Assembly: GCA_021821045.1 (NCBI GenBank)
Contig: JAKACW010000009.1
Coordinates: 1,109-65,108 of the forward strand
DNA: 64,000 bases
Source: Pseudomonadota bacterium
GTDB lineage: Bacteria; Pseudomonadota; Gammaproteobacteria; JAADHS01
Direction of reading: 5' to 3'
Part shown: one piece after another, positions 13,313 to 61,379 of the stretch
Position numbering within the stretch: position 1 is the stretch's first letter
Layout of the letters: the number at the start of each line of letters is the position of its first letter
Made by a program: the position numbers and the translations under genes
The notes under the pieces: generated by a model
What the model was told of the DNA's origin: nothing
What the model saw: only the letters and a program-made list of their open reading frames with translations
Databases searched by the model: none

Positions 13313-13464
13313 CGACTTTAGAATCCGCAGTGGCGCGACCTAGTAGCATTGGTCCGCGCCCATCCGTGCTTCATACGTGCTTTCACTAGTTGGCTTGTGT
13401 TGCCTCGAGTGCAACTCTCCCGTGACTTGGATCGGCTACAACACCGCGACTGGGAGGGCACGCA

Positions 13465-29111: not shown

Positions 29112-29176
29112 TCTCTCCGGTGCTCCGTATAATGTGGCCCAAAACGTCGTGGCCAATTAGAGTTGGGGCGGGCCCC

Positions 29177-29237
29177 GTGGGAGCGGATCATTCCGCGATC
29201 GACTCGGCGAAGAATCGCGGTAGGAAACCGCTCCCAC
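29177..29237. repeat. REP pair between glnE and ilvE
   Basis: GTGGGAGCGGATCATTCCGCGAT then CGAAGAATCGCGGTAGGAAACCGCTCCCAC (inverted type-B unit). Confidence 0.9.
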
Positions 29238-29279
29238 TATGTCAGCCGGCGAACATGATCGTCCGTAAGGAGTTTCAAA

Positions 29280-30200
29280 ATGTCGATGGCAGACCGGGAC
29301 GGCGTCATCTGGGTCGATGGCGAAATGGTTCCCTGGCGCGAGGCCAAAACCCATCTGCTCACCCATACGCTGCACTACGGCATGGGTGCGTTCGAGGGTG
29401 TGCGGGCGTATAAAGCCGAAAAAGGCACGGCGATCTTTCGTCTCAAGGAACACACCGACCGGTTGTTCCGCTCCGCCCACATCCTCGGCATGAAGATGCG
29501 CTTCGACAAGGACACCATCAACGAAGCCACGCGTTCCGTGCTGCGAGAGAACAAATTGGCCTCGGCCTATATTCGTCCCATGTGTTACTACGGTTCGGAA
29601 GGCATGGGATTGCGGGCGGATAATCTGATCTGCCACACCATGATCGCCGCTTGGACCTGGGGCGCGTACATGGGCGAGGAGAACATGACGCGGGGCATCA
29701 AGGTCCGCACCTCGTCCTTCACCCGCCACCACGTCAACATCACCATGTGCAAGGCGAAGGCCAACGGCAACTACATCAATTCGATGCTGGCGCTCAACGA
29801 AGCGCTCGCGGCGGGCTGCGACGAAGCATTGCTGTTGGACGCCGAGGGCTTCGTCGCCGAGGGCAGCGGCGAGAATGTTTTTCTGGTGCGCGACGGCATT
29901 CTCTATACCCCCGAACTGACTTCGGCGCTGGATGGCATTACGCGCAACACAATTATCAAGCTCGCCATCGATTTGGGAATGACCGTCAAGGAGAAGCGCA
30001 TTACCCGCGACGAGGTGTATATCGCGGATGAGGCGTTTTTCACCGGCACGGCGGCGGAAGTGACGCCCATTCGCGAACTCGACGGCCGCGCCATCGGCGA
30101 ATGCGGTCGGGGGCCGGTAACGGAAAAACTGCAAACGCTTTATTTCGACGTGGTCCATGGGCGGCACCATGGTCACCCGGATTGGCTGACCTATATATGA
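29280..30200 (+). CDS. ilvE: Branched-chain amino acid aminotransferase IlvE
   Basis: 306 aa, fold-type IV PLP enzyme, MSMADRDGVIWVDGEMVPWREAKTHLLTHTLHYGMGAFEGVRAY... Confidence 0.95.
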   Translation: MSMADRDGVIWVDGEMVPWREAKTHLLTHTLHYGMGAFEGVRAYKAEKGTAIFRLKEHTDRLFRSAHILGMKMRFDKDTINEATRSVLRENKLASAYIRPMCYYGSEGMGLRADNLICHTMIAAWTWGAYMGEENMTRGIKVRTSSFTRHHVNITMCKAKANGNYINSMLALNEALAAGCDEALLLDAEGFVAEGSGENVFLVRDGILYTPELTSALDGITRNTIIKLAIDLGMTVKEKRITRDEVYIADEAFFTGTAAEVTPIRELDGRAIGECGRGPVTEKLQTLYFDVVHGRHHGHPDWLTYI

Positions 30201-30201
30201 C

Positions 30202-30270
30202 GAATCGCGGTAAGAAACCGCTCCCACAAGGTGGAGTGCAGTCTGTTGTGGGAGCGGATCATTCCGCGAT
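30202..30270. repeat. REP pair immediately after the ilvE stop
   Basis: GAATCGCGGTAAGAAACCGCTCCCAC then GTGGGAGCGGATCATTCCGCGAT. Confidence 0.9.
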
Positions 30271-30775: not shown

Positions 30776-31807
30776 ATGAATGATTCGCCTCACGGGACGC
30801 TCGTGGTCGGGCCATCGTGGGTGGGTGACATGGTACTGGCGCAGAGCTTGTTCATGCAGCTCAAGAAGGACGCGCCTGGTACGCCCATCGATGTGCTGGC
30901 CCCGGCCTGGGCGGCGCCGCTGACCGCGCGCATGCCCGAGGTGTGTAGTGCGATCACCCTTGCGGTGGGCCACGGCGAACTCAAACTCGCGACCCGTTTT
31001 CGATTGGGCCGCCAGTTGCGCGCAAATCAGTACGGTCGCGCGATCGTGTTGCCCAATTCCCTGAAGTCGGCGCTGGTGCCGTTTTGGGCCGACATTCCGC
31101 GTCGCACAGGTTATCGCGGCGAGTGGCGTTACGGTTTGCTCAATGATGTCCGCAGCTTGGACAAAGCGCGTCTGCCAACGACCGTCAGCCGTTTCGTGGC
31201 GCTGGGGTTGGCGCCTGATCAACCTCCGCCCGATCCGTTGCCCACGCCGCGTTTGCGCATCGATGAGACAATGCGCCTGCAGGCGTTGAGCCGCTTGAAT
31301 ATCCCGAAACCGACCAAGCCCATCCTGGTGCTCTGTCCTGGTGCCGAATACGGCCCGGCCAAACGTTGGCCGGCCGACTATTTCGGCGCCGTCGCTCGGC
31401 ATCAATACAACGTCGGCTGGGAGGTGTGGTTGTTCGGGTCCGCCAAAGACGAGGCCATAACCGCGGAGGTGCAGAAGGCGGCCGGCGTGCCTTGCCTCGA
31501 TCTGGCGGGCAAGACCCAACTGGAAGACGCCGTCGATTTGATGTCACTGGCGTCCGCCGTGATCAGCAACGATTCGGGCCTGATGCATATCGCCGCGGCC
31601 TTGGATCGACCGCTGGTGGCGGTGTACGGTTCATCCGATCCGGGCTTCACGCCGCCCATGTCCACGCGCGCCCGCATCGAGCGGCTGGGTTTGTCGTGCA
31701 GTCCATGTTTTAAGCGCGAGTGTCCGTTCGGACACTACAATTGTTTGGTCGAGCTAAGACCCGAGCGAGTCATCGCGGCATTGAATCAGTTGGATATCGC
31801 GGCATGA
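30776..31807 (+). CDS. waaF: ADP-heptose:LPS heptosyltransferase II WaaF (GT9)
   Basis: LVVGPSWVGDMVLAQSLFMQLKK matches the WaaF N-terminus ILVIGPSWVGDMMMSQSLY. GT9 motifs run throughout. Confidence 0.9.
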   Translation: MNDSPHGTLVVGPSWVGDMVLAQSLFMQLKKDAPGTPIDVLAPAWAAPLTARMPEVCSAITLAVGHGELKLATRFRLGRQLRANQYGRAIVLPNSLKSALVPFWADIPRRTGYRGEWRYGLLNDVRSLDKARLPTTVSRFVALGLAPDQPPPDPLPTPRLRIDETMRLQALSRLNIPKPTKPILVLCPGAEYGPAKRWPADYFGAVARHQYNVGWEVWLFGSAKDEAITAEVQKAAGVPCLDLAGKTQLEDAVDLMSLASAVISNDSGLMHIAAALDRPLVAVYGSSDPGFTPPMSTRARIERLGLSCSPCFKRECPFGHYNCLVELRPERVIAALNQLDIAA

Positions 31808-32832
31808 AAGTGTTGCTGGTCAAAATGTCCTCTTTCGGGGATCTGATCCACACCCTGCCGGCGGTGACCGATGCCGTGCGCGCCGTTCCCGGTCTCAAGC
31901 TGCATTGGGTGGTGGAAGAAAATCTGGCGCAGATTCCCACTTGGCACTACGGCGTCGAGAAGATTCATCCGGCGGCGTTTCGACGCTGGAAGAAAACGCC
32001 GCTGCATACCCTGTTCGGCGACGAATGGCGGGCGTTTCGCGAACAGCTTGCCAAGGAAGAATACGACGTCATCGTCGACGCTCAAGGTTTGATGAAAAGC
32101 GCCTGGGTGACGCGCATCGCCCGCGGCAAGACGCGTTGGGGTTTCGACGTGCACACCGCGCGGGAAAAACTCGCCGCCATGGCCTACGATCATACCGTCA
32201 AGGCCGAGTATTACATCATCCCCCGTTTGCGCCGTTTGATGGCCGCGGCGTTGGGTTATCCGCTTGACGAGAAAGGGTGCGACTATGGCATCGCCAATCG
32301 TCATTTCCCCGGCGATGACCGGCCGCGCCAGCCTTATGTGGTATTCGCCCACGGTACGACTTGGCCTAACAAGCTATGGCCATTGCGGCATTGGGTTGAC
32401 TTGGCAAGGCGGGTGAACGAAGGGGGCTACATGGTGTGTCTGCCATGGGGCAACGTCGCCGAACGCGAGCGCGCCAGCCACATCGCCCGAGAATGCGACC
32501 GGGCCGAGGTGTTGCCCGAGATGTCGCTGGACGGTATGGCGGCGGTGATTCAAAGCGCGTACGGTTTGGTCGGCGTGGATACCGGCTTCACCCATTTGGC
32601 CGCCGCACTGGAGGTGCCGTCGGTTGGGGTGTTTGGTCCGACGGTGCCGCCGTTGCCGGGCGAGCGTGATAATAAGCAGCGTTACCTCGTGGCCGACTTT
32701 CAGTGTGCGCCCTGCTTTAAGCGCCAATGCGCTTACGACGGTCCGACGGAAGTGATTCCGGCCTGCTACGGCGCCTTGACGCCGCAGCGCGTGTGGGACG
32801 CTTTGCGGGAGGAACTCGATGCCAATGAGTGA
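31804..32832 (+). CDS. waaC: ADP-heptose:LPS heptosyltransferase I WaaC (GT9). Start at ATG 31804 overlaps the waaF stop (ATGA).
   Basis: MKVLLVKMSSFGDLIHTLPAVTDA is a WaaC-type N-terminus. The track ORF from 31720 adds 28 non-homologous codons. Confidence 0.88.
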   Translation: MKVLLVKMSSFGDLIHTLPAVTDAVRAVPGLKLHWVVEENLAQIPTWHYGVEKIHPAAFRRWKKTPLHTLFGDEWRAFREQLAKEEYDVIVDAQGLMKSAWVTRIARGKTRWGFDVHTAREKLAAMAYDHTVKAEYYIIPRLRRLMAAALGYPLDEKGCDYGIANRHFPGDDRPRQPYVVFAHGTTWPNKLWPLRHWVDLARRVNEGGYMVCLPWGNVAERERASHIARECDRAEVLPEMSLDGMAAVIQSAYGLVGVDTGFTHLAAALEVPSVGVFGPTVPPLPGERDNKQRYLVADFQCAPCFKRQCAYDGPTEVIPACYGALTPQRVWDALREELDANE

Positions 32833-33583
32833 GCGCCAACCCGTGTCTGCCGTGATCATTACGCTCAATGTGGCCAACGTGCTCGAGGCGTGCCTCAAGA
32901 GCGTGGCGTTCGCCGACGAAATCGTCATCGTGGACTGCGGCAGCAATGACGCTACGCTGGATATTGCCAAGACTTACACCGAGCGCATCGTGCATCAACC
33001 GTGGCTGGGCTACGGCTTGCAAAAGCAATTCGCCGTGCGCCGCGCCAAGCATCCCTGGGTATTGTGCGTCGATGCCGACGAGCGGATCAGCGACGCGTTG
33101 CGCGCCAGCATCGAACGGGAACTTGCCGCGCCGAAATTCAACGCCTACGAAATGCCGCGCTGCAACCGCTTCATGGGACGCTGGCTGCGCCATGGCGAAG
33201 GCTATCCAGACTACAACCTGCGCCTGTTCCATAGCAAACACGCACAATGGAGCGACGATGAGATCCACGAGCACGTGGTCGCGCAGGGCGCGGTCGGTCG
33301 CTTGGAGGGCGATTTGCTGCACGAGTCGGAAGAGACTCTGGCCCAGTATCTGGATAAGCAGAATCGGTATACGACACTGCAAGCCAAGAAGCTCGTGGAT
33401 CAGGGCAAAACAGTCACTACTGCTCAATTGCTGTTAAGCCCGCTGGTTCGTTTCGTGAAGTTCTATTTCCTGCGTCGCGGCTTCCTAGACGGCGTGCCGG
33501 GGTTGGTGCACATCGCGATTGGTTGCTTCAATTCTTTTATCAAATACGCCAAGGCAATGGCGTTGACGCGGCGGGCGTCGTGA
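32819..33583 (+). CDS. Family 2 glycosyltransferase, LPS core WaaE/KdtX-like
   Basis: VSAVIITLNVANVLEACLKSV...VIVDCGSNDATLDIAK...VLCVDADE (GT2 DxD). At 254 aa it is the same size as WaaE. Confidence 0.8.
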   Translation: MPMSERQPVSAVIITLNVANVLEACLKSVAFADEIVIVDCGSNDATLDIAKTYTERIVHQPWLGYGLQKQFAVRRAKHPWVLCVDADERISDALRASIERELAAPKFNAYEMPRCNRFMGRWLRHGEGYPDYNLRLFHSKHAQWSDDEIHEHVVAQGAVGRLEGDLLHESEETLAQYLDKQNRYTTLQAKKLVDQGKTVTTAQLLLSPLVRFVKFYFLRRGFLDGVPGLVHIAIGCFNSFIKYAKAMALTRRAS

Positions 33584-34626
33584 CAGGCGCGTCGGCAACA
33601 TTACGCAATGATGCGCGGATATTGGTTATTATCGTCGCGCGCATTGGCGACACCTTGTTGGTTACGCCGGCATTGCGGGCGCTCAAGGCCGCCGCGCCCA
33701 ATGGAAAGCTGACCGTGCTGGCTCATCCTAAACGGGCGGAGGTGCTGCGTAACCTTCCGTTCATCGACCAGCTCGGGGCGATTACCAAGCATCGAGCGCG
33801 GATCATGGGTTGGATCGGGCGCAATCGATACGATCACGCCATTGTTTATGGGAACGACCACGCGTTGCTCGAGTACGCGTTGCGAGTGTCGCGCCATGTT
33901 GTGGCGTTTCGCGGTTCAGCGAAGCGTAGTGCGCGGAAAATCGACTGGCTGGATGAACCGAACGCACCGATGCACGCGGTGGATCATCGCGCTCTGGTGC
34001 TGGGCCCGCTGGGGGTAACGCTAAGCGACAAACGGTTGGCGTATCAAGTCACCTCTGGCGAGGGCGTCGCGGCGAAGGAGTGGCTGCGGAGTCACTTTAA
34101 AGCGCAGCCCCATCCCCTGATTGCGCTGCAACTGGTGAGTTTTCCGACCAAGCAGTACCGAGATTGGGGCGCCGCTAATTTCACCGAACTGATGTCGCGC
34201 ATCCTCGAGCACCACCCAAACGCGGGCTTCCTATTGCTGGGCGGTCCGAGCGATTTGCCGCAGGTCCAACCGGTGGCGCAACAGTTTGGCGAACGTTGCG
34301 CGATCGCAGCGGGCGCGACGACCTTGCGGGAATCGGCGGCACTGATTGCGCACAGCGATTTATATGTTGGCGTCGACACCGGGCCGACCCATCTTGCCGG
34401 AGCCCTGGGCGTGCCCATGGTGGCGCTTTACCACTGTGCCCATCCGGGACGGAACTTGATTCCGCTGCAGAACCCGCGCCTGCGCTACATCGAGCATCCC
34501 TCCACCAATGCGCCCGGTGCGGCGATCGAAAAGACGTCCATGAGCGACATCAGTGTAGAGGAGGTCTGGCAAGCGGTGTCAGAGTTGCTGGCGGGGCCGG
34601 TGAACGTCCGGAAGATTCATGTCTAG
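33580..34626 (+). CDS. GT9-family LPS heptosyltransferase (WaaQ-like). Probable GTG start overlaps the previous stop (GTGA).
   Basis: ILVIIVARIGDTLLVTPALRALKAA is a GT9 N-terminal motif, with the C-terminal GVDTGPTHLAGALGVPMVALY. The track ORF starts at 33523, inside the upstream gene. Confidence 0.75.
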   Translation: MTGASATLRNDARILVIIVARIGDTLLVTPALRALKAAAPNGKLTVLAHPKRAEVLRNLPFIDQLGAITKHRARIMGWIGRNRYDHAIVYGNDHALLEYALRVSRHVVAFRGSAKRSARKIDWLDEPNAPMHAVDHRALVLGPLGVTLSDKRLAYQVTSGEGVAAKEWLRSHFKAQPHPLIALQLVSFPTKQYRDWGAANFTELMSRILEHHPNAGFLLLGGPSDLPQVQPVAQQFGERCAIAAGATTLRESAALIAHSDLYVGVDTGPTHLAGALGVPMVALYHCAHPGRNLIPLQNPRLRYIEHPSTNAPGAAIEKTSMSDISVEEVWQAVSELLAGPVNVRKIHV

Positions 34627-44505: not shown

Positions 44506-44657
44506 AACGATGGTGCTGGCACTCAGTAATTCAGTGAGCGGGCGCCCATTGTACCTCAGATTTGCTCGTCCACCGATGGGCGGTGGTCGCCGGTTTAGCC
44601 TGCGGGCTATGGTAAAATCCCGCCTTCAATTTTCGCCACAGCTTGCTAGAGGGGCAC

Positions 44658-46085
44658 ATGAAAGTCGCGATGCCGGAATGGGAAAAGGCGCGGGTGCTGG
44701 TTGTCGGCGATGTCATGCTGGACCGCTACTGGTACGGCGGGACGTCGCGCATCTCGCCCGAGGCGCCGGTACCGGTGGTGCATGTGCGCGACAACGAAGA
44801 GCGCATCGGCGGCGCCGGCAACGTGGCGCTTAACGTGGCGGCGTTGGGGGCGCATGTGGTTGCCGTCGGTCAGATCGGCGAGGATGACGCCGCGCAAGCC
44901 GTGAAGCGTCTGCTCGATCAAGCCGGCGTGGTGAACGCCCTGGCCATCAATCCCGCCTCGCCGACCATCACCAAGCTGCGGGTGGTCAGTCGCCAGCAAC
45001 AGCTTATCCGGCTTGATTTCGAGGATGCGGACATCACTGTTCCCATCGAACCGCTGTTGGCATGTCTAGATCGACATATCGAGAATGTCGATGTCGTTGT
45101 GCTGTCGGACTACGGCAAGGGCGTGCTGCGCAACCCGCGTCCGTTCATCGAGCGGGCGCGCCGGGCCGGCAAACCCGTGCTCATCGACCCCAAGACCAAG
45201 GACTTTGGCCTTTATCGCGGCGCATCCTTGGTGACCCCCAACATGAATGAGTTCGAGGCGGTGGTCGGGCGTTGCGCGGATGAACAGGAGCTGGTGAAGA
45301 AGGCCCTCAAGCTGATCGCGCAGCATGAGATCGAGGCGCTGCTGGTTACCCGCGGCGAACACGGCATGAGCCTGATCCGCCCGAACCAGGAACCTCTTCA
45401 TCTGCCGACTCAGGCCAGAGAGGTATTCGATGTCACCGGCGCGGGCGACACGGTCATCGCCGTTGCGGCGGCGGCGCTGGCGGCGGGTTGCGACTTGGCC
45501 GATGCAGTCTATCTGTCCAATGTCGGCGCCGGAATCGTTGTCGGTAAGCTGGGTACGGCCACTGTTTCCGTGCCCGAGCTGCGGCGCGCCCTGCACGAGC
45601 TGCACGAGTATAAATTCGATATTGTTCCCGAAGACGAGTTGGTCACTCTAGTGGAGGAAGCCAAGGCGCAAGGCGAGACGGTCGTCATGACCAACGGCTG
45701 TTTCGATATTCTCCATGCCGGCCACGTTCAGTACCTGGAAGAAGCGCGCAAACTCGGCGACCGTTTGATCGTCGCCGTGAACGACGATGATTCGGTTCGA
45801 AAACTCAAAGGCGAAGGGCGCCCGATCAATCCGGTCGGCCAGCGCATGGCGGTGCTGGCGGCACTCAAGAGTGTTGATTGGGTAGTGCCCTTTAGCGAGG
45901 ACACCCCCGAGCGACTAATTTGCCGGGTGATCCCCGACATTTTGGTCAAGGGAGGCGACTACCGGCCGGAGCAAATTGCCGGCGGCGAGTGTGTCCAGGC
46001 CAATGGCGGTCAAGTCGTCGTGCTGAGCTTTAAGGACGGGTGTTCGACGTCGAATATCATAAACAAGATTCGAGCAACTGAGTAA
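44658..46085 (+). CDS. hldE: Bifunctional heptose 7-phosphate kinase / heptose 1-phosphate adenylyltransferase HldE (RfaE)
   Basis: [31 protein letters not shown] is the ribokinase-like domain I. The C-terminal cytidylyltransferase-like domain II has [16 protein letters not shown]. Confidence 0.93.
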
Positions 46086-46140
46086 CCGACGGCGTGCCGC
46101 GAGGCTGCGCTCGCCTTGCGCAACATCGCAGAACCGTTGT

Positions 46141-46282
46141 CGGAGCGGATCGTTCCGCGATATGAATCGGCGAAGAATCGCGGTAAGAAACCGCTCCCAC
46201 GATAAGATTGTAGGAGCGGATTTATCCGCGAAACGCGTCGGCGACGAATGGTCGAAGAATCGCGGTAGGAAACCGCTCCCAC
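46141..46282. repeat. REP cluster (4 units) between hldE and hldD
   Basis: GGAGCGGATCGTTCCGCGAT, GAAGAATCGCGGTAAGAAACCGCTCCCAC, GTAGGAGCGGATTTATCCGCGAAAC, GAAGAATCGCGGTAGGAAACCGCTCCCAC. Confidence 0.9.
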
Positions 46283-46319
46283 AGCGACACGGGCATTGAG
46301 AACAAAAAAGAGGTTCCAA

Positions 46320-47264
46320 ATGATTATCGTTACCGGAGGGGCCGGCTTCATCGGCAGCAACATGGTCAAGGCGCTGAATGAGCGGGGTCGGCGCGACATT
46401 CTCGTCGTCGATGATTTGCAGGATGGAACCAAGTTCAAGAACATTGTCGATTGCGACATCTTGGATTACGTCGATAAGGACGATTTCATTTCCCAAGTGA
46501 ACGCCGGCGGTTGGAAGCATCTCCCCGACGTGATTTTTCATAATGGCGCGTGTTCGACCACCACGGAGTGGGACGGCCGCTACATGATGGCTACCAACTA
46601 CGAGTATTCCAAATCCCTGCTGTATTACTGCACCAGCGCCCGCGTGCCCTATATTTACGCCTCGTCTGCGGCGACCTACGGTGCAAGCACGGTATTTCGT
46701 GAGGAACCAGCCTACGAAGCGCCGCTCAATGTGTACGGTTACAGCAAACTGCTGTTCGACAACTACGTGCGCCGCACCATGCAGCGCACGACCAGCCAGG
46801 TCGTTGGTCTGCGGTATTTCAACGTCTATGGCCCGCGCGAGCAGCACAAAGGTTCCATGGCGAGCGTGGCGTTTCATCTCAACAACCAACTTCTCGAAAC
46901 GGGTAAAGTGCGGCTGTTCGAAGGCTGCGACGGGTATGGGGATGGCGAGCAGCGCCGGGATTTCATTTATGTCGGCGACGTGGTGGCGGTAAATCTGTGG
47001 TTGTGGGAACATCCAACCAAAAGCGGTATTTTCAATCTCGGCACCGGACGCAGTCAGCCGTTCAACGATGTCGCCAAGGCGGTTATCGCCCATCACAGGC
47101 GCGGCGAGATCGACTACATTCCCTTCCCCGATCACCTGCGCGGCCGTTACCAAAGTTTCACCGAAGCGGACATGAGCCGCTTGCGCGCGATCGGTTACGA
47201 CGCACCGTTCAAGACCGTCGAAGAGGGTGTGGCCGAATACCTGGCGTGGCTTAACCGGTCGTAA
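46320..47264 (+). CDS. hldD: ADP-L-glycero-D-manno-heptose 6-epimerase HldD (RfaD). Start at the Met at 46320.
   Basis: [23 protein letters not shown]...YGYSKLLFD (an SDR YxxxK). Confidence 0.93.
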
Positions 47265-47281
47265 ACGGGCGCGCCGCACGT

Positions 47282-48559
47282 ATGGTGTTGTCGCGCCGGC
47301 TGTATACTCTCCTGCTGTATGTTCTGACGCCGTTGTTCATTGCGCGGCTCGCCTTGCGCGGCATGAAAGCGCCCGCTTATTTTGGTCATTGGCCCGAGCG
47401 CTTCGGTTTTGGCGGCCGCTTGTCGCGGTCCAAAACAGTGGTTTGGCTGCACGCGGTTTCGGTGGGCGAAGTTCTCGCCGCACGGCCCTTGGTCGAGAGG
47501 CTGCGGACGCGACTACCCCACAATGACTGGCTCATCACCGTTACCACGCCGACGGGCCGCGAGCGCGCGGAGGCCGTATTTGGGGCGTTCGCGACTGTGC
47601 GTTACTTGCCTTATGATCTGCCGGGCGCGGTACGGCGTTTCTTGGATCGCATTGAACCTGCCTTGGCCGTGGTGATGGAAACCGAACTCTGGCCGAATCT
47701 GTTCACTGAGCTTCGCCGTCGCAACGTTCCGTTGGTTCTGGCTAACGTGCGAATGTCGGAAAAATCCGCGACGGGTTACAGGAAGTTCGCTGCTCTGACG
47801 CGCGACATCTTGTCGAATGTGACCTGGGCGGCCGTTCAGACAGAACATGACCGGCGACGAATGGTCGAGCTGGGTTTGAGTGCCGAGAGGATTGCCGTGA
47901 CCGGCAGCGTCAAGCTCGACGCCCAGATTTTTCCCGAGTCCATCACAGCCGGTCGACACTTGCGCGAACTACTTGGCGTGAACAGACCGATCTGGATCGC
48001 GGCCAGCACGCGGCCGCACGAAGAAGCAATCGTGCTCGACGCGCACCGCGACGTTCTGCGGCAACTTCCCGATGCCGGACTGCTACTCGTGCCGCGGCAC
48101 CCTGAGCGCTTCGAAGAGGTGGCGCAACTCATCGCTCAACGTGGGTTTGTGTCGCATCGGCGCAGCAGCGCGTCGGCGCCAAGTCGAGACTGGCAGGTCT
48201 ATCTTGGCGACACCATGGGCGAGCTCACGACGCTTTATGCGGCCAGCGACGTTGCATTCGTCGGCGGCAGCATCGAGCCTTTAGGCGGACAAAACATCCT
48301 TGAGCCCGCCGCGCTTGGACTGCCCGTGTTGAGTGGGCCGCATACGTTCAACTTCGCGCAAGTTGCCGACGAATTGGAGAAAGCCGGGGGCCTGGTGCGA
48401 GTCGCAGACGCGGCAGAACTGGCGGCCAGTGTTGTTCGTTTGCTGCGGTCCGCGCCCGATCGCCACGAGCAGGGTTGCTGCGCCAGAAATTACGTGACCG
48501 CCAACCAGGGGGCAACGGATAGGGTAGTGGAGGGCATCTTGGCGCTAAGCAGCCGCTGA
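47282..48559 (+). CDS. waaA: Kdo transferase WaaA (KdtA)
   Basis: VWLHAVSVGEVLAARPLVERLR and the C-terminal GGSIEPLGGQNILEPAALGLPVLSGPHTFNF are KdtA signatures. Confidence 0.92.
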   Translation: MVLSRRLYTLLLYVLTPLFIARLALRGMKAPAYFGHWPERFGFGGRLSRSKTVVWLHAVSVGEVLAARPLVERLRTRLPHNDWLITVTTPTGRERAEAVFGAFATVRYLPYDLPGAVRRFLDRIEPALAVVMETELWPNLFTELRRRNVPLVLANVRMSEKSATGYRKFAALTRDILSNVTWAAVQTEHDRRRMVELGLSAERIAVTGSVKLDAQIFPESITAGRHLRELLGVNRPIWIAASTRPHEEAIVLDAHRDVLRQLPDAGLLLVPRHPERFEEVAQLIAQRGFVSHRRSSASAPSRDWQVYLGDTMGELTTLYAASDVAFVGGSIEPLGGQNILEPAALGLPVLSGPHTFNFAQVADELEKAGGLVRVADAAELAASVVRLLRSAPDRHEQGCCARNYVTANQGATDRVVEGILALSSR

Positions 48560-51179: not shown

Positions 51180-51290
51180 GGCGGCTCAGCGGCTGGGGGT
51201 GCTCGGCGGTGTTTTTCCGACCGAGCTGAGATTAAACCCTTTGAACCTGAACCGGTCAGTACCGGCGGAGGAAAGCGGCGCAGTAAACGA
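51180..51290 (+). promoter_or_regulatory. TPP (THI-box) riboswitch in the thiC leader
   Basis: GGGGTGCTCGG ... CCGAGCTGAGATTAAACCCTTTGAACCTGAACCGGTCAGTACCGGCGGAGGAA contains the conserved CUGAGA and ACCCUUUGAACCUGA cores, 110-220 nt upstream of thiC. Confidence 0.85.
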
Positions 51291-51383: not shown

Positions 51384-53282
<1,899 letters not shown>

Positions 53283-53827: not shown

Positions 53828-55273
53828 ATGACGAGCCCACGGCCGACAACATCCGATTGGCGCAACAACTGGCGCGCCAGCATCGCTGTAAAAATTTCGG
53901 GCACCATCATGTGGCTGGTGGTCGCGGTGTTGTTTCTGGTCAACATTGCGGTGCAATGGAACGTCGAGCAAAAAGTTCGCGAGGAACTAGAAAAATCCGC
54001 CGAACACATCATCTTCGAGATCAACGAGATTCTGGAGGTCGCCGAGGGCGACGATGCCATTGCCCGGACCCGCGATGTGCTCCAGCATCTATTGGCGACG
54101 GAGGAATACTCGCGCGTTGAGATATTCGTTGATGAGAGGTTCTGGTTTGGACTTGGATCCGAAGTTGCGAACCAGGACATGCTGTCGCGCTCCATTCGTA
54201 TCATCGACGCCAATGCCGCCACGCATGTTTTGAGGATGGACTTTTATCACCCGCGGGTCGCCGATATCGTCAAGAGCGAACGCAAGTGGCTGTTGTTGGT
54301 GGCGGGATTGCCGATTTTCGTGATGGGTCTGGTGTTGGCGGGATTGGTTCACGTTATTGTTGCACGGCCCATTCAGGAGCTTGTAACGGCGACACGCCGT
54401 GTCTCGGAAGGTGAGCTGGAAATCCGGCTGGCGGAGAACCGGCAGGACGAATTCGGATCGCTGGCGACGTTCTTCAACCAAATGCTATCCCGGCTGCAGC
54501 AAAACCAACGCGACTTGGCCGCGGCCCTCGACCAGGCGGAGACCGCGAATCGCGCCAAGAGCGCATTCTTGGCGAACATGAGCCATGAATTGCGCACGCC
54601 GCTGAACGCCATCATGGGTTACAGCGAGATGGTCGAAGAAGAAGCGCAAGATGCCGGTCACAGCCAATATATCGCGGACCTCAAGCGGATTCGATCGTCG
54701 GGCGCGTATTTGTTGTCTTTGATAAACGATATTCTCGATTTGTCCAAAATCGAGGCCGGTAAGTTTGAACTGTACGCTGAGCGGTTCAAAGTCGCCACGT
54801 TGATGGAAGACGTCATGGTCACCGTCAAGCCGCTCATCGAACGCAACGGCAACACGGGCGAGATGCGCATCGGCCGCGGCGTCGAGATGATCTACACGGA
54901 TATGACTCGCCTGCGGCAGATTCTTTTCAACCTGCTGTCAAACGCAGCGAAATTTACCCACCACGGCAGCATCAAGTTTTACGCTGATCGCGCACTGACG
55001 AGCGGTGGCGAGCCCGCTGTCGAGTTTCACGTCGAAGATACGGGGATTGGCATCGCGCCGGAGAAGCTCGCGCACTTGTTCGAGGATTTTACGCAAGCCG
55101 ATGTGTCGACGACGCGCAAATATGGCGGTACGGGACTGGGTCTTTCCATTAGCCGGCGTTTTGCGCAGCTCATGGGCGGGACGCTCATCGTGGAGAGCGA
55201 ACCCGGCCGCGGCTCGAAGTTCACTTTTGTATTGCCGCTGACGCAGCCCGAGGTCGCCACGCCCATTACTTAA
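53828..55273 (+). CDS. Membrane sensor histidine kinase (TM, periplasmic loop, TM, HAMP, HisKA, HATPase_c)
   Basis: The H box is [20 protein letters not shown]. The N/G boxes are [15 protein letters not shown] and [17 protein letters not shown] segment ([26 protein letters not shown]) follows TM2. Confidence 0.88.
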
Positions 55274-56417
55274 CAACAATGATTTGCTCTTCGCTTGCTT
55301 GGCCGAACTTGCGATTCTCGCGATCCGCCAGGCGCCAGCGGAACGGGTAACGCCCGGCATCGTTGGGCGCCTTGACGTTAAAGCTGAAGACTTTGATCGC
55401 GCCGGGTGCGATCACTTCGCCGGGTTGCAGTTCAACGCGATTGATAAACCACGCAAGATTGTTGTCCGGTTCCTGCGAGATCAGCGCGATATCGCCATGG
55501 CGCCACGGGCTGTCCCCCGTGTTTTTGAACACCAACGCCACTGGATAGTCATCTCCGCCGATCATCGTCTCGGGAACAGTTTGGGACATAAACTCGGCGC
55601 GGAACGTTTCGCTGATGGGCTGCGGTTCGGGCTGTCCGACGCGAATGACCGTCTGCGGCGATGGCTCGCCGAACGCCCGGTTCTTGTCATGACGCAGCTG
55701 CCACTCGAATGGATACTCGCCCGCCTTGCGCGGTGCCGTAGCCTCGAAACTGAACGTCGCCGTTTGGCCCGGAGCGATGAAATCGCGGGCGCCGAGCTTC
55801 ACTTTGCCGATGCCCCAGGTGCTCTGTGCGCCGGATGTCGTCGCACCGAGATAGAAACCGTTTTCGTCGCTCCAGCTCAATTCGCCGGCGTTTTCAAATT
55901 GGATCAAGACTTTGAATTTTTCGCCCGGCGCAAGCCGATCCGGCACCAGCTGGGAGACGAACTTGGCGCGGGTATGCGGGTCGTCGACTCGGATGGTCGA
56001 CACGGGTGAATGAATTCCAGGGATGGGCTTGCCCGCGCGCATGAGCTGCCACGACAGATGGTAGGTGCCGGGCGTAGCGGGCGCGGAAAGCGTGAATTCG
56101 AAAGTCTTGGTTTCACCCGGTCCGACGATTTCGTCGCTGGCGAATTCCACCTTGTCGACGCCCCACGACGTGCCGTTGCCCGCTTCACCGATGGCCAACA
56201 ACACGCCATTGTCCGCTGTCCAGGCTTCCGTGCCGACGTTTTTCAGCACCACTTCCACCGGCTGCTGGGCTTGGGTCACCAGTTGATCTGGAACGGTTTG
56301 GCCGACGAAGTGACCGCCGTAAAACGTCTGGGCGAAAGCAGCGGCGTTATAAAACGCGATGCCGAGGCCAGCCAGCAGGCCAAGAACAGCGAAGCGATTC
56401 GGATTATGGTTTTTCAT
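55266..56417 (-). CDS. Secreted protein made of three tandem ~115-aa Ig-like repeats (NBR1-FW / CARDB-like)
   Basis: Signal peptide MKNHNPNRFAVLGLLAGLGIAFYNAAAFA. Then three repeats share F-x-[GS]-Q-x-VP, NxG, W, PG-x-x-x-F-x-F and G-x-Y-x-x-x-W-x-L-x-x-x-x-x-x-FG. The third is FMSQTVPETM...FKNTGDSPW...GRYPFRWRLAD...KFG. Confidence 0.7.
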   Translation of the reverse strand: MKNHNPNRFAVLGLLAGLGIAFYNAAAFAQTFYGGHFVGQTVPDQLVTQAQQPVEVVLKNVGTEAWTADNGVLLAIGEAGNGTSWGVDKVEFASDEIVGPGETKTFEFTLSAPATPGTYHLSWQLMRAGKPIPGIHSPVSTIRVDDPHTRAKFVSQLVPDRLAPGEKFKVLIQFENAGELSWSDENGFYLGATTSGAQSTWGIGKVKLGARDFIAPGQTATFSFEATAPRKAGEYPFEWQLRHDKNRAFGEPSPQTVIRVGQPEPQPISETFRAEFMSQTVPETMIGGDDYPVALVFKNTGDSPWRHGDIALISQEPDNNLAWFINRVELQPGEVIAPGAIKVFSFNVKAPNDAGRYPFRWRLADRENRKFGQASEEQIIVVK

Positions 56418-56679
56418 GGTGGAATAGACCTGCAAGAAAACGGTTGATTTATTGTAGCAAGGCGTCGACCCGGTTCTGGTCACGGGGCAACTCGGGGAAC
56501 GCCCTGATTCTAACGTTCTTATTTCCGGTCTTGGATAGGGCGGTTGGCCGCCCGACTAGGTAATCGGCCGTAGGCTCGGGTTGCCTGAGGCGGCCTTTGC
56601 TTGAGTCTAAATAGTTGAAATAAAGCTAAAAAAACTGACTTTCCGGACGACAACTCGATTACGCCTCGCCTCGAGGCCA

Positions 56680-58818
56680 TTGGATCGATTGCAGGGATTC
56701 TGGGTGAGTCAACAACTTAAAGCGCTGCTGCTGTGCGTTATGGCAGGTCTCGCCGCGGCATTGGGCGGCCTCGCCGTCGACGGATTCGCCGCACCTGAGC
56801 GTTTTCTTTACGATCAGCGCCAACGCGCCCACCGTGCCGATCTCGTCGCGCCCGATCAGCTGGTCCTGGTGATGATCGACGAACATACGCTTGCTGCATT
56901 GCGGGCGGACTTGGGGCGATTTCCCTGGCCGCGCCATATTTACGCCGACGTTTTGGATTTCATCGCATTGGGCGAGCCCCGCGCCGTGGTGTTCGACATT
57001 CTGTTTAGCGAGCCCGAGGCCGTCGATGGCCAAGGTGCGGTGAACGATCAGCGGTTCGCCGAAGCGAGCAGTGCGTTGCCTGCGGCACATGCCGCCCGCG
57101 TAGCGACTACGGGCGGGGAAGGGAAATCGGAGTTCGACACGTCGGCGTTTGAAATCGGGCGGGCGAACGCGGATCCGGGCGAGTCGGCGCTGCTGGTGCC
57201 GCCGATTGATCCGTTGGCGCGCAGCGCTCGGGCCATAGGGTTCGTCGATCTAACGCCGGATTCCGATGGCGTCGTGCGTCGCACGCCGTTGCATCGGCCG
57301 TTTTCTGGATCGGTTTTGCCGTCGCTCGGAATCGCTGCTCTGCGCGCCGCAGGATGGTCGGACTGGACTGTCCGTCCGGATGGATTGGCAGCCGCGAGCG
57401 GGCTTGTCATTCCCGCGTCAAGTGATGGTTCGTACGACGTTGGGTTCTATGGCCGATTCAATGAATTGTCGTTCTCGGCGCTCGTCGCCGGCGCGAAGAA
57501 AATCCACGAGGGTGACGTCGAAAACCTGTTGGTGCATCCCGACGAGTTTCGCGACAAGATCGTGTTCATCGGTGCCAGCGCGGCGGGTCTCGATGATCTG
57601 AAGGCCAATCCTCTTTCTCCGGCCGCACCCGGCGTGCGGATTCACGCCAGTGTCGCCGGCAATGTTCTTGACAACACTTTCTTGCGCCGTCCAGCCCGCT
57701 GGTGGGTCGGCGTGCATAGCGTGGTGGTCTCGTGTCTGATTGGCGCCGCAACGCTGCTCGGCGCGCGGCTGGTCTGGCAAATCGCGTTGCCGGTGGGCGT
57801 GCTGGCGCTGTTCGTGCTGGCCGGTTTCGAGGTATTCGCCCATGGTTGGATCGTGGAAATGTCCGCGCCGCTCGTTGCCGGGTTAGTGAGTTGGCTGAGT
57901 GGGTTGGGCTACGTGAATGTTGTCCAGGGAAAAGACCGACGCAAAGTGCGGCGATTGCTCGCGCAGTACGTGTCGCCTTCAGTGCTTTCCGCCGTCGTCG
58001 ATAAATATGAGGACGTCATCCGCGCGGAGGTGGGAACGCGGGAAAACGTCACGGTGTTGTTCTCCGACGTGCGGTCGTTCACGTCCATGTCGGAGAACCT
58101 TCAAGCCGAACAAGTCGTCGATTTGCTCAACGTGCACTTTGGCGTGATGACTGAAATCATTTTCCGTTACGACGGCACGTTGGACAAGTTTATCGGCGAC
58201 GCGATCATGGCGTTTTGGGGCGCGCCGCTGCGCATCGACGATCACGCGGAGCGCGCGGTAAGAGCGGCGTTGGACATGGCTCGAGGTATCGAGACCGTTA
58301 ACGCCACGCTCAAGGTCCGCGGTTTGCCGCAGATTCGCATCGGCATCGGCTTGAACAGCGGCGAGGTTGTGCTGGGGAACATTGGTTCGGAGCGCAAGCT
58401 GGATTACACGGTGATCGGCGACAACGTGAATCTGGCTTCGCGCATGGAAGGTTTGACGGGCAAGTACGGCTGCACGGTTCTGTTGTCCGAGGCGACGTAC
58501 TTGGCGGTGGCTGCAAAGGTGCCAAGTGCGCTGATCGATCGAGTGCGGGTCAAAGGCAAGCATCAGCCGATCGGCATTTACGTTCCCCTGGAACTGCTGG
58601 AGGGAACCGTGGATCGCGCTCAATGGGAGCAGGTGAGAGCCAACATGGATGAAGCGTTTCAGCATTACTGCGCGCGGCGCTGGGAAGCGGCGATGACCGC
58701 ATACGGGAAGGTTCCGTTCCCAGGTGTCGCTGAGCTGTTCGTCAAACGCTGCAAGGGGTACATGGACGCGCCGCCGTCTGCCGATTGGAACGGTGTGACC
58801 ACGTTGGACAGCAAGTAG
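56680..58818 (+). CDS. CHASE2-sensor class III adenylate/guanylate cyclase
   Basis: The N-terminal CHASE2 periplasmic domain is flanked by TM helices. The three TM helices at WWVGVHSVVVSCLIGAATLLG... come next. Then a CYCc domain (VTVLFSDVRSFTSMSE...FIGDAIMAFWGAP...GIGLNSGEVVLGNIGS...TVIGDNVNLASRMEG) and a ~80-aa C-terminal extension. Confidence 0.88.
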   Translation: MDRLQGFWVSQQLKALLLCVMAGLAAALGGLAVDGFAAPERFLYDQRQRAHRADLVAPDQLVLVMIDEHTLAALRADLGRFPWPRHIYADVLDFIALGEPRAVVFDILFSEPEAVDGQGAVNDQRFAEASSALPAAHAARVATTGGEGKSEFDTSAFEIGRANADPGESALLVPPIDPLARSARAIGFVDLTPDSDGVVRRTPLHRPFSGSVLPSLGIAALRAAGWSDWTVRPDGLAAASGLVIPASSDGSYDVGFYGRFNELSFSALVAGAKKIHEGDVENLLVHPDEFRDKIVFIGASAAGLDDLKANPLSPAAPGVRIHASVAGNVLDNTFLRRPARWWVGVHSVVVSCLIGAATLLGARLVWQIALPVGVLALFVLAGFEVFAHGWIVEMSAPLVAGLVSWLSGLGYVNVVQGKDRRKVRRLLAQYVSPSVLSAVVDKYEDVIRAEVGTRENVTVLFSDVRSFTSMSENLQAEQVVDLLNVHFGVMTEIIFRYDGTLDKFIGDAIMAFWGAPLRIDDHAERAVRAALDMARGIETVNATLKVRGLPQIRIGIGLNSGEVVLGNIGSERKLDYTVIGDNVNLASRMEGLTGKYGCTVLLSEATYLAVAAKVPSALIDRVRVKGKHQPIGIYVPLELLEGTVDRAQWEQVRANMDEAFQHYCARRWEAAMTAYGKVPFPGVAELFVKRCKGYMDAPPSADWNGVTTLDSK

Positions 58819-58832
58819 TGAGGAGGGAGCGA

Positions 58833-59324
58833 ATGGGAAATTGCACGCGAGTTTGCCTGGCCATAGCCGTGTGGTTGATGGCTGCCGCCGCCGGGGCTGA
58901 AGAGTTCCGCTATGTGGTGAGCAAGAAAGCCGACTTGCTGTTGGAGCCGAAGTTTGGGACTGCGGTGGTCATTACCGTCGCGCAAGGCGAAAAAGTAGCG
59001 ATTCTGGAGCAGCAGGGAAGCTGGTTGCGCGTGCGCCATGCCGATGCTCGCGGCTGGGTTTCGCGGCTATTGGTCGGTCCAAACCCTCCGATGGACAAAG
59101 TCTCCGCCCTCGACAAGATCGACGATGCCGCGACATTGAATGTCCGTCGTCGCGCCTCCGACGTCACCGCCGCCGGGGCGACCCGCGGTTTGACAGCCGA
59201 GGACCGGCGTCGCGCCAGTCAGGAAGACGCGGCCGATTTCGATGCGTTGGCGCGCATGGAGCAATGGCGCGTCGATGACGAGGAAATCGCGGCGTTCTCA
59301 AACCCGATACGGGGGTTGCCATGA
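58833..59324 (+). CDS. Periplasmic SH3b-domain protein (signal peptide, SH3_3, acidic tail)
   Basis: An AGGAGGGA Shine-Dalgarno sits before ATG 58833. Signal peptide MGNCTRVCLAIAVWLMAAAAGA. SH3b core VAQGEKVAILEQQGSWLRVRHADARGWV. It starts 15 nt after the cyclase stop. Confidence 0.75.
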   Translation: MGNCTRVCLAIAVWLMAAAAGAEEFRYVVSKKADLLLEPKFGTAVVITVAQGEKVAILEQQGSWLRVRHADARGWVSRLLVGPNPPMDKVSALDKIDDAATLNVRRRASDVTAAGATRGLTAEDRRRASQEDAADFDALARMEQWRVDDEEIAAFSNPIRGLP

Positions 59325-60151
59325 AAAGACCACTCGTTGTTATTGCGACGGCGGTCGCGCTGTTGGGAAGTGTGATTCATGCCGACGCCGGGCCGTCGTC
59401 CGACAGGACGCGTCTGTCCGATCAAGCGGGCGTATTCGCCGACACGCCTCAGGATGTCGCGGCAGAGATCAATTTCGGTCGCAACGTGGCCGCGCGCATT
59501 CTGGCGCGTTATCCCTTGCACGGCGACGAAGCGCTGAATCATTACATCAATCTGGTTGGCAACACGCTTACCTTATCCAGCGCGCGTCCGGAGTTGACGT
59601 TCCGCTTTGCGGTGCTGGAAACCGATGCGGTCAATGCCTATGCGGCGCCCGGCGGTTATATCTTCGTTACTCGCGGAGCGTTGAACGCCATGAGCGATGA
59701 AGCGGAACTGGCCGCCGTGCTGGCCCATGAGATCGCCCATGTCACCGAAAAACACATCGTCAATGCCATGAACATCAGCGGCGAGAGCGGCGGGACCGGT
59801 ATCGGGTCAATCTTTTCCAGCATCTCGGACCCGCTGCGGGCGGCCTTCACCGTGGCCGTGGACAAAGCCATGAGCATCCTGTTTCAGGAGGGATTGGACC
59901 AGCAAGATGAGTTCGAGGCGGATCGTTACGCGCTCGAGCTGCTGGCTGTGACGGGCTACGACCCGCGCGCCCTGGAACGGTATTTGGAAAAACTCGGATC
60001 CCGTCACGACATGCCGCAGACCATAACCGATACCCATCCGGGTTTCGATACGCGGCTGGCGTCGCTGCGCGCGGCGACGGGGGAAATGGGCTTGGAGAAA
60101 GCGGGTCAAGCGCGATTAACGGAGCGGTTTACATCCTATGTGCACAAATAA
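59321..60151 (+). CDS. M48-family Zn metallopeptidase (HExxH), periplasmic
   Basis: Signal peptide, then HEIAHVTEKH followed by a downstream Glu (EFEADRYALELL). It overlaps the SH3 gene stop by 4 nt. Confidence 0.85.
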   Translation: MKRPLVVIATAVALLGSVIHADAGPSSDRTRLSDQAGVFADTPQDVAAEINFGRNVAARILARYPLHGDEALNHYINLVGNTLTLSSARPELTFRFAVLETDAVNAYAAPGGYIFVTRGALNAMSDEAELAAVLAHEIAHVTEKHIVNAMNISGESGGTGIGSIFSSISDPLRAAFTVAVDKAMSILFQEGLDQQDEFEADRYALELLAVTGYDPRALERYLEKLGSRHDMPQTITDTHPGFDTRLASLRAATGEMGLEKAGQARLTERFTSYVHK

Positions 60152-61379
60152 TGTTCAGCATTTTCGATTCCTTCTTGCAGGGGTGACTGTGGTGGCGGCG
60201 TTGTGGAGCGCGCCCGATGTGCAGGCGGACGAGTATCACTACCGCAACATTTTGGTGGGGGAGCGGGCCAGCGGAATGGGCGGCGCCTACACGGCGGTGT
60301 CCGACAGTCCGGCGGGCCTGTATTACAATCCCGCCGGCGTGGTGTACGCGGCGGGCGGCAGCATTACCGCCAGCGTCAGCACCTATGACTACATCAGCAA
60401 GAGTTACGGTCGGGGTCTGAGCGGATTAAACGATTGGAATCGCCGCTCGACGAACTTTGTGCCGAGTTTCTTCGGCGTCTTGCGCCCAGTCGGCAATGGC
60501 GTCCTGGGCATATCCTATGCGATGCCCGACGCGGTCACCGAGGATCAGGATCTGGAGTTTCAGGATTCGGCGAATAGCATTCGCCGCTATGTCGTCAACT
60601 TCAATAACCAGGACCGCACGTTCCAGATTGGTCCTTCGTATGCGCGACGTCTCAATGACGAGTTGTCGGTGGGCGCATCGGTCTATTTCCACTACCGCGA
60701 GCGTGAGTGGATTTCAAATCAGTTGACCGAATTGACGTCCGGTCTCTACCAGATGAACAACACCTACTTTCAAACCAACGAGTACGGCTATAAGCCCGTG
60801 TTGGGCGTGATGTGGAGTCCGCTGGATAAGTGGTCTTTCGGCGCCTCGGTGAGCAAAGTGACGATCTATGAGGGAAAAGCGGACAGCCAAGTGACGACCC
60901 GCAGCACGGACAACGATCTCACGTTCGTGAAGTCGGCCACCGAGGACAAGCGCAAGCATCCGCTAAACGTGACTTTGGGCGCGGCCTATTTCTATTCACC
61001 CGCGTTCATGATCTCGGCCGACGCGGCCTATTACGAGAAATTCACCGATCCGATTTACGGTGAGCGCGAGTCGGTGGTGAACCTTTCCATCGGTGGCGAG
61101 TACTATCTCAACCCCGCGATCGCGCTGCGCGCCGGGGTCTTTACCGACTATGCCAACACGCCGGACCTCGTCGCGGGACAGTCCAACCAACCTGAGCACG
61201 TGGATTACCTGGGGCTTAGCTTCAGCGTGACCCATTTCACGCGCAACTCTTCCCTATCGCTGGGTTGCGTTTACCGGGACGGCGACGGCAAGGCGCAAAT
61301 CGTCGGCGGCTCGGACGAAATCCAAGACGTCTCCTACACGGGAGCTTCGTTGTTTATAACCTCGGGGTATTCTTACTGA
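60138..61379 (+). CDS. FadL/OmpP1/TodX-family outer-membrane beta-barrel transporter
   Basis: Signal peptide. RASGMGGAYTAVSDSPAGLYYNPAG matches the FadL N-terminal hatch motif. The C-terminal strand ends aromatic (TSGYSY). Confidence 0.75.
   Translation: MCTNNVQHFRFLLAGVTVVAALWSAPDVQADEYHYRNILVGERASGMGGAYTAVSDSPAGLYYNPAGVVYAAGGSITASVSTYDYISKSYGRGLSGLNDWNRRSTNFVPSFFGVLRPVGNGVLGISYAMPDAVTEDQDLEFQDSANSIRRYVVNFNNQDRTFQIGPSYARRLNDELSVGASVYFHYREREWISNQLTELTSGLYQMNNTYFQTNEYGYKPVLGVMWSPLDKWSFGASVSKVTIYEGKADSQVTTRSTDNDLTFVKSATEDKRKHPLNVTLGAAYFYSPAFMISADAAYYEKFTDPIYGERESVVNLSIGGEYYLNPAIALRAGVFTDYANTPDLVAGQSNQPEHVDYLGLSFSVTHFTRNSSLSLGCVYRDGDGKAQIVGGSDEIQDVSYTGASLFITSGYSY

Follow-up and report, generated by a model that had tools for sequence, protein, structure and literature searches.

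The autophagy receptor NBR1 binds cargo through a signature domain named FW (four-tryptophan), and in the literature that we searched the bacterial relatives of this domain are discussed only as XRE-FW regulators with one FW domain at the C-terminus (PMC3357945, PMC9233695). Here we describe tri-FW, a protein encoded in a 64-kb stretch of gammaproteobacterial DNA (contig JAKACW010000009.1, positions 1,109 to 65,108; hereafter the window), in which a predicted signal peptide is followed by three FW domains and nothing else. We tentatively propose, with a probability of roughly 45%, that tri-FW is a Sec-exported, soluble, non-enzymatic binder or scaffold within a second-messenger-controlled programme of the cell envelope, and that neither of the proteins encoded on its flanks, the HAMP kinase and the CHASE2 cyclase, has it as a dedicated subunit.

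FW domains are protein-binding modules: that of Chaetomium Nbr1 (CtNbr1) binds the mannosidase Ams1 via an extended side surface and a pocket between strands β1 and β6, which holds the free N-terminal Gly-Gly (PMC9233695). F651 and W763 form the walls of this pocket, W672 and L762 form its floor, and human NBR1 retains it (PMC9233695). NBR1 itself acts in the cytosol as an autophagy receptor and has one FW domain amid PB1, ZZ, LIR and UBA elements; ILRUN (C6orf106) is a metazoan protein of the cytoplasm or nucleus with a UBA-like domain; and the bacterial XRE-FW proteins, likewise present in gammaproteobacteria, carry an N-terminal helix-turn-helix (HTH) ahead of their one FW domain (PMC3357945). 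The window protein belongs to the same domain family as the XRE-FW proteins, and with the FW domain of NBR1 (PDB 4OLE) it has in common both Pfam family PF16158 and the signature F-V-x-[DQ]-x-x-P, N-x-G, WG, A-P, G-x-Y, W-x-L and F-G, yet its architecture differs: predicted export and FW domains only. We therefore reject it as an NBR1 orthologue (no PB1, ZZ, LIR or UBA, only Ig-like Pfam domains, and a signal peptide) and as an XRE-FW regulator (no HTH match, a signal peptide at the N-terminus, and three FW domains instead of one).

Three FW domains behind a predicted signal peptide

By profile hidden Markov model (HMM) and by fold, tri-FW belongs to the FW domain family. Pfam places it in N_BRCA1_IG (PF16158) with 89.6 bits against a cut-off of 28 (E = 2.4e-25), in three separate stretches, and the remaining matches are weaker: NPCBM_assoc reaches 30.2 bits, and CARDB (PF07705) 23.2 bits without any individually significant stretch. 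CARDB was thus rejected as the best assignment of the repeats, as were Cupredoxin_1, CopC, Fn3-like, LacZ_4, Ig_VWA7 and choice-of-anchor V, each of which falls under its curated cut-off. A profile built from five orthologues matches 4OLE, the human NBR1 FW crystal structure, at E = 4.7e-5, and gives a weak sequence match to the ILRUN FW structure 6VHI (E = 0.11; 19% identity). The full-length AlphaFold model, with a confidence score (pLDDT) of 83, consists of three β-sandwiches, and repeat 2 modelled from 17 repeat sequences reaches a pLDDT of 96; the modelled repeat is an Ig-like β-sandwich, and solved FW domains give a better superposition with it than do other folds of the Ig-like type. 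Membership is defined here operationally, by HMM and fold and not by a count of tryptophans: each repeat has three, and at most three of the four named tryptophans of the canonical FW domain are kept. W2 and W4 align unambiguously with NBR1; W3 is aligned with it in the MAFFT alignment (WG motif) but sits inside an insertion in the HMMER alignment; and in every repeat an I, V or L takes the place of W1. Ahead of W3, each repeat has a segment ~9 residues longer than in NBR1, with a short helix.

The repeats share 32-37% of their residues pairwise (BLASTP E = 1e-24, 3e-20 and 6e-25). Across 23 tri-FW proteins, between-protein identity at the same position is 30.5% for repeat 1, 38% for repeat 2 and 41.5% for repeat 3, and identity across different positions is 29-32%; copies of repeat 1 are no more alike between proteins than repeats at unlike positions. 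Repeats 2 and 3 keep position-specific identities, which argues for an old triplication whose positions have been individually maintained, and repeat 3 even carries a motif of its own, P-x-x-N-L-x-W-x-x-x-[RE]-[VI]. Repeats inside one tri-FW protein are no more similar than repeats from separate proteins, and on that ground we reject a recent expansion or concerted evolution. The triplication is thus ancient, with repeat 1 the freest to vary.

As for location, the N-terminus looks like a Sec signal peptide that would be cut by signal peptidase I: it has K2 and R8, a hydrophobic core (AVLGLLAGLGIAF) and a likely cleavage site between AFA and Q. On a Kyte-Doolittle scan (19-residue window) this segment scores 1.8 and the rest of the protein no more than 0.81, so that no second hydrophobic or membrane segment was found in the whole sequence; in the full-length AlphaFold model it forms a low-confidence helix, residues 6-27. 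Signal-peptide-like N-termini recur in most of 19 standalone homologues, and a few of those gene calls look truncated. The mature protein would comprise 354 amino acids (aa), with a mass of ~38.9 kDa, an isoelectric point of 5.3, nine tryptophans (three per repeat) and not one cysteine, and therefore no lipobox; no C-terminal sorting motif was seen on reading the sequence by eye, and the Pfam scan returned no catalytic family, only Ig-like domains. With no catalytic match, no cysteine and a single hydrophobic segment, tri-FW is ruled out as an enzyme, a lipoprotein or a membrane anchor.

The open reading frame (ORF) begins with ATG at 56417 and ends with TAA at 55266-55268. A longer alternative would start at a GTG at 56483; the gene calls of the homologues all start at the methionine equivalent to that of MKNH in tri-FW, which immediately precedes the hydrophobic signal segment. 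The exact protein sequence is already deposited in NCBI and ENA. The ratio of nonsynonymous to synonymous substitution rates (dN/dS) against the 76%-identical orthologue in locus L003 is 0.087, with dS near saturation, and tri-FW is a real gene under purifying selection.

Much of this had been anticipated by an earlier, sequence-only reading of the same DNA, which described a clear signal peptide, three ~115-residue repeats and no catalytic motif. The signal peptide (residues 1-29) is the only hydrophobic segment, the repeats emerge from formal comparison by BLASTP (E 1e-20 to 1e-25) as well as in the three Pfam stretches, and nothing in Pfam points to an enzyme family. Its question of whether the repeats were of the Nbr1_FW, CARDB or DUF11 type is answered by the Pfam scores in favour of Nbr1_FW, with CARDB far weaker. 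Its list of repeat motifs is real and needs two amendments: P-G-E/Q reads PGA in repeat 3, and the terminal F-G is I-P-G in repeat 1.

Tandem FW arrays across bacteria

Word-indexed homologue searches yielded no more than 4-5 full-length relatives, of which one search gave four, with 91, 76, 57 and 41% identity and all from metagenome assemblies, and it took an exhaustive HMMER search with a profile of these relatives to expose the family: 7144 cluster representatives pass E <= 1e-3, and 833 pass E <= 1e-30, each representing a cluster at 50% identity. Scanned locally with an HMM of one repeat, the best 150 matches prove to be mostly long proteins with 3-14 copies of it, and PF16158 is matched by 42 of the 42 long relatives scanned. 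The Pfam partners in these 42 include Peptidase_S8 (subtilases; 5), CotH (3), GSDH (3), Laminin_G_3, RHS repeats, FG-GAP, Peptidase_C1 (papain-like) and a β-helix. The long arrays are made of the same repeat subfamily as tri-FW, with the same length and motifs, and differ in carrying a catalytic or toxin domain, whereas tri-FW and ~19 other representatives, three-repeat proteins of 357-393 aa, are the bare array. The long proteins are probably for the most part secreted or surface enzymes and toxins, in which case the FW repeat would be an extracytoplasmic accessory module on the long proteins. Neither the tandem arrays nor the bare three-domain form is described in the literature searched, though both are visible in sequence databases.

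How much of the Nbr1 pocket do these repeats keep? Mapped by motif position via human NBR1, an inferred correspondence, the wall residue F651 would be matched by F37, F153 and F276, and W763 by W123, W239 and W361. All 20 tri-FW proteins compared have the three tryptophans, at least 90% of these proteins also have F153 and F276, and the phenylalanine of repeat 1, F37, is not conserved family-wide. At the floor, the equivalent of W672 is aliphatic and that of L762 variable. It is plausible that each repeat has a related site at which a peptide or a strand could dock.

Genes beside tri-FW

In the window the gene order runs thiC (with a thiamine pyrophosphate (TPP) riboswitch), a YgaP-like membrane protein, the HAMP kinase (+), the FW gene (-), the CHASE2 operon (+) and an MshEN-T2SSE ATPase (-), as detailed in Table 1. 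We compared it with other standalone tri-FW genes in a sample of 15 informative loci, window included; a further scan for related loci with a narrower alignment gave 21, only two of them new standalone tri-FW genes. The immediate neighbour is a cyclic-nucleotide signalling gene in 13 of the 15. Five loci share the divergent layout in which tri-FW faces a CHASE2, SH3, M48 and outer-membrane protein (OMP) operon: the window, L003 (76% FW identity), L001 (57%), L016 (37%) and L042 (36%), and the cyclase itself ranges from 47% to 76% identity across L016, L001 and L003. L042 reproduces the full layout of the window, from RF3 and the MshEN ATPase through the OMP-M48-SH3-CHASE2 operon to FW. In five further loci at 41-46% identity (the P0004 contig, L005, L017, L018 and L021) the MshEN ATPase lies directly upstream of FW and the CHASE2 operon is absent; L005 is a Chromatiaceae metagenome-assembled genome (MAG), and among named relatives a Chromatiaceae MAG comes closest to the FW locus. 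In L019 and L020 (36-38% identity) a PAS-GGDEF-EAL gene is followed by the FW gene, and in L013 (32%) the FW gene is followed by a 4HB_MCP-GGDEF gene. No GGDEF or EAL gene lies within the 64-kb window.

Table 1. Features of the tri-FW locus and of related loci (window coordinates unless a locus is named).
Feature	Coordinates	Strand	Basis or remark
tri-FW coding sequence, complete	55266-56417	-	383 aa + stop codon; ORF list, translation, Pfam N_BRCA1_IG
Predicted Sec-type signal peptide, residues 1-29	56331-56417	-	sole hydrophobic segment; cleavage between AFA and Q inferred from sequence features
FW repeat 1, residues 31-147	55977-56327	-	most variable repeat; BLASTP, repeat HMM
FW repeat 2, residues 148-262, and Pro-rich linker 263-270	55608-55976	-	
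FW repeat 3, residues 271-383	55269-55607	-	most conserved repeat
Divergent FW/CHASE2 intergenic region	56418-56679	.	three-way alignment of window, L003, L001
HAMP-HisKA-HATPase sensor kinase, convergent with FW	53828-55273	+	Pfam; not a conserved partner
CHASE2 operon	56680-61379	+	Pfam, NCBIfam; recurrent, not obligate
CHASE2 + class III cyclase	56680-58818	+	
SH3-domain protein	58785-59324	+	
M48 peptidase (BepA/LoiP-like)	59321-60151	+	
FadL/PorV-like outer-membrane protein	60138-61379	+	
CHASE2 operon in other loci	L001 3214-7847; L003 2103-6781; L016 136-4898; L042 3017-7737		
Orphan MshEN-domain T2SSE-family ATPase, 794 aa	61409-63793	-	Pfam MshEN E = 1.3e-19, T2SSE E = 4.8e-116
MshEN ATPase orthologues (~800 aa)	L005 7031-9445; L017 5321-7705; L042 500-2914		

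The CHASE2 operon is absent from the available sequence around the FW gene at 10 other tri-FW loci. In a rough neighbour-joining tree of FW sequences the CHASE2-adjacent loci fall in two branches with the MshEN-adjacent ones between them, which, together with L042, suggests an ancestral block of ATPase, CHASE2 operon and FW from which the operon was lost several times. FW persists after operon loss and is in this sense independent of the operon; the five operon-less orthologues, and the loci that are GGDEF/EAL-adjacent or lack such a neighbour, likewise mean that it is not an obligate component of the CHASE2 system.

The start-to-start distance between FW and CHASE2 is 262 bp (TTG at 56680), or 286 bp if the cyclase starts at the GTG at 56704, and across the five CHASE2-adjacent loci the shared intergenic region spans 208-263 bp. 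Two blocks on the minus strand are invariant in the window, L003 and L001: GCCGATTACCTAGTC at 56554-56568, and GGAAATAAGAACGTTAGA at 56509-56526, which precedes the FW start by ~100 nt. In relaxed form (AAATAA..CGTT) the latter block also stands upstream of FW in L021 (MshEN-adjacent) and L020 (GGDEF-EAL-adjacent), and this form occurs once in the window; the pattern was defined post hoc from these same sequences and is for that reason only a lead. The recurrent block may be a binding site for a regulator. A consensus scan of 55000-57000 gave no sigma-70-like promoter, the only terminator-like match in that interval falls inside the FW coding sequence, and the intergenic region holds no Rfam family.

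Several statements of the sequence-only reading concern these flanks. The identities it gave to the neighbours, a HAMP-HisKA-HATPase kinase and an operon with a CHASE2 and class III cyclase protein, are borne out by Pfam, and its 8-nt convergent overlap with the kinase is exact. Its distance of 197 bp between two promoters could not be reproduced, given the start-to-start distances above and the lack of a promoter match. The tie that it drew between FW and CHASE2 holds in part: the divergent layout extends over five loci down to 36-37% identity, beyond trivial synteny, but five orthologues do without the operon. A special relation to the sensor kinase did not stand, as we discuss below.

The CHASE2-SH3-M48-OMP operon looks like a trans-envelope signalling module, of which we met no description in the literature. 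The nearest precedent comes from Sinorhizobium meliloti, where the CHASE2 cyclases CyaD1, CyaD2 and CyaK perceive a protein signal aided by the outer-membrane β-barrel NsrA, a pairing of CHASE2 cyclase and outer-membrane barrel like that of the window operon (PMC13001267). The passages about these cyclases name no FW, SH3 or M48 part, and the analogy thus covers the neighbouring operon, not the FW protein (PMC13001267).

The most frequent recurring neighbour of tri-FW is the MshEN ATPase, one operon away in L042. In the loci examined it always lies between prfC (RF3) and either the FW gene or the CHASE2 operon, and never beside secretion or pilus genes. Its N-terminal ~250 residues match no Pfam family, and two of its segments, KLGEILIGENLVTEEQLNEALEEQ and PLGELLVQKGLVTTGEIQQSLAKK, resemble the tandem c-di-GMP-binding motifs of MshEN.

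Some distant loci have features of their own. At L019 6566-10310, tri-FW lies between the PAS-GGDEF-EAL gene and minor-pilin-like genes, on the same strand and with short gaps, directly upstream of GspH/FimT-, PilV- (Tt1218/PilV-like) and PilW-like genes, an arrangement which suggests that it is co-transcribed with components of a pilus. In L013 (3854-4231, -) and L022 (2857-3234, -) a conserved ORF of 125 aa, unmatched in Pfam, is divergent from tri-FW; these are loci which otherwise have only peptidyl-prolyl isomerase and metallophosphoesterase genes in common.

The rest of the window fits a Gram-negative gammaproteobacterium (24558-25733 (-), 30776-34626 (+), 44643-48559), with genes for a 391-aa T2SSE-family ATPase (PilT/PilU-like in size), three GT9 heptosyltransferases, a GT2 enzyme, HldE-like and WaaA-like proteins, a TolC-like outer-membrane efflux protein, DsbD and GroEL. 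The TPP riboswitch (51185-51290, +; Rfam RF00059, 64.8 bits) lies upstream of thiC (51402-53282) and is ordinary. Two minus-strand ORFs, 13318-14496 (392 aa) and 29157-30227 (356 aa), are without a Pfam match at E <= 1e-5; as both are overlapped by long ORFs of the other strand, they are candidate genes only.

What tri-FW may do

We posit that tri-FW, with its three Ig-like β-sandwich domains of the NBR1/ILRUN type joined by short linkers, leaves the cytoplasm and, once its signal peptide is cleaved, is a soluble protein of ~39 kDa. Going by the eukaryotic precedent, each FW domain could be a protein- or peptide-binding module, in which case the standalone form, with three of them, would serve in the periplasm or at the cell surface as a scaffold or binder of several valencies, and its expression or action would be part of an envelope programme run by c-di-GMP or cAMP/cGMP, for example attachment, a pilus or a matrix. 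Several points weigh against this proposal. Only ~4-5 independent arrangement types underlie the neighbourhood signal, many from related uncultured gammaproteobacteria, and with so few types and such related hosts part of the signal is synteny by inheritance, and at L022 and L044 no cyclic-nucleotide gene adjoins FW. With I, V or L in the tri-FW repeats in place of W1, the tryptophan at the floor of the Nbr1 pocket, the pocket may differ or be absent, and Ig-like arrays on secreted enzymes can be plain spacers. The literature searched holds no experiment on any bacterial FW protein, and a periplasmic and an extracellular location are indistinguishable by sequence.

Could the neighbours then mean nothing? 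Perhaps tri-FW is an exported Ig-like protein of a generic kind, functionally unconnected with them, be it a structural protein of the envelope, a glycan- or surface-binding protein or the remnant of a larger secreted enzyme, and its adjacency to signalling genes is synteny inherited in one gammaproteobacterial lineage. The housekeeping flanks thiC, prfC/RF3 and valS are likewise syntenic across loci, and L022 and L044 would be explained at once; however, three kinds of cyclic-nucleotide gene occur beside tri-FW in differing arrangements, including lineages at 31-38% identity (L013, L019, L020, L016, L042), and no such gene lies elsewhere in the window. The remnant option is moreover ruled out by a three-repeat form that is conserved end to end (dN/dS 0.09), with position-specific repeat identities. 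We regard this explanation as doubtful, though it deserves to be taken seriously. The sequence-only reading had instead made tri-FW a periplasmic ligand-capture protein or co-receptor of the CHASE2 cyclase: a protein or peptide signal, admitted by the FadL/PorV-like OMP or made by M48, would be presented to the periplasmic CHASE2 domain and thereby modulate cAMP/cGMP synthesis, with both units co-regulated from the shared divergent promoter region. The retention of the divergent layout from 36 to 76% FW identity, with 208-263 bp between the genes, in loci that sit in two separate branches of the FW tree speaks for such a partnership, as do the conserved intergenic blocks, the peptide-binding record of FW domains (PMC9233695) and the Sinorhizobium cyclases that sense a protein via an outer-membrane barrel (PMC13001267). 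It is nevertheless unlikely: five orthologues keep FW where the operon is absent, and the other neighbours (the MshEN ATPase and, by their Pfam domains, the PAS-GGDEF-EAL proteins) are cytoplasmic and unable to receive a periplasmic ligand.

The sensor kinase fares far worse. As a periplasmic accessory of the HAMP kinase, tri-FW might be the ligand-binding partner of its periplasmic loop, coupled to it via the 3' overlap (55266-55273, with the FW stop inside the last kinase codons), and this overlap does recur in L003. Yet convergent genes are not co-transcribed, and the kinase and the YgaP-like gene are present in the window and its 76%-identical relative L003 only: already at 57% identity (L001) the kinase is missing and thiC directly follows FW, and both genes are gone from all other loci. 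The kinase gene was inserted recently and its product is no partner of tri-FW; with no co-occurrence beyond these two loci we reject a partnership that is scarcely credible. A more specific idea, improbable as it stands, is that tri-FW serves as a receptor in the periplasm whose ligands, free N-termini of proteins or short peptides, are bound in an Nbr1-type pocket, and which would couple envelope proteolysis by M48, or signals imported by the FadL/PorV-like protein, to the CHASE2 cyclase and, more broadly, to c-di-GMP and cyclic-nucleotide circuits. If true, this would for the first time assign a function to a bacterial FW domain and show how a ligand is delivered to a CHASE2 sensor, and would indicate an extracytoplasmic bacterial origin for the cargo-recognition domain of NBR1.

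Regardless of which of these roles applies, the locus and its relatives suggest that the picture of bacterial FW domains shifts from XRE-FW regulators to a large subfamily of tandem arrays, found on long multidomain proteins or as bare tri-FW proteins with a signal peptide, and the neighbourhood of the bare form is non-random: a CHASE2 cyclase operon, an MshEN ATPase or GGDEF/EAL proteins. Should the cyclic-nucleotide link not be functional, tri-FW would be one more uncharacterised exported Ig-like protein; should it be functional, it would provide a handle both on what bacterial FW domains bind and on what CHASE2 sensors perceive.

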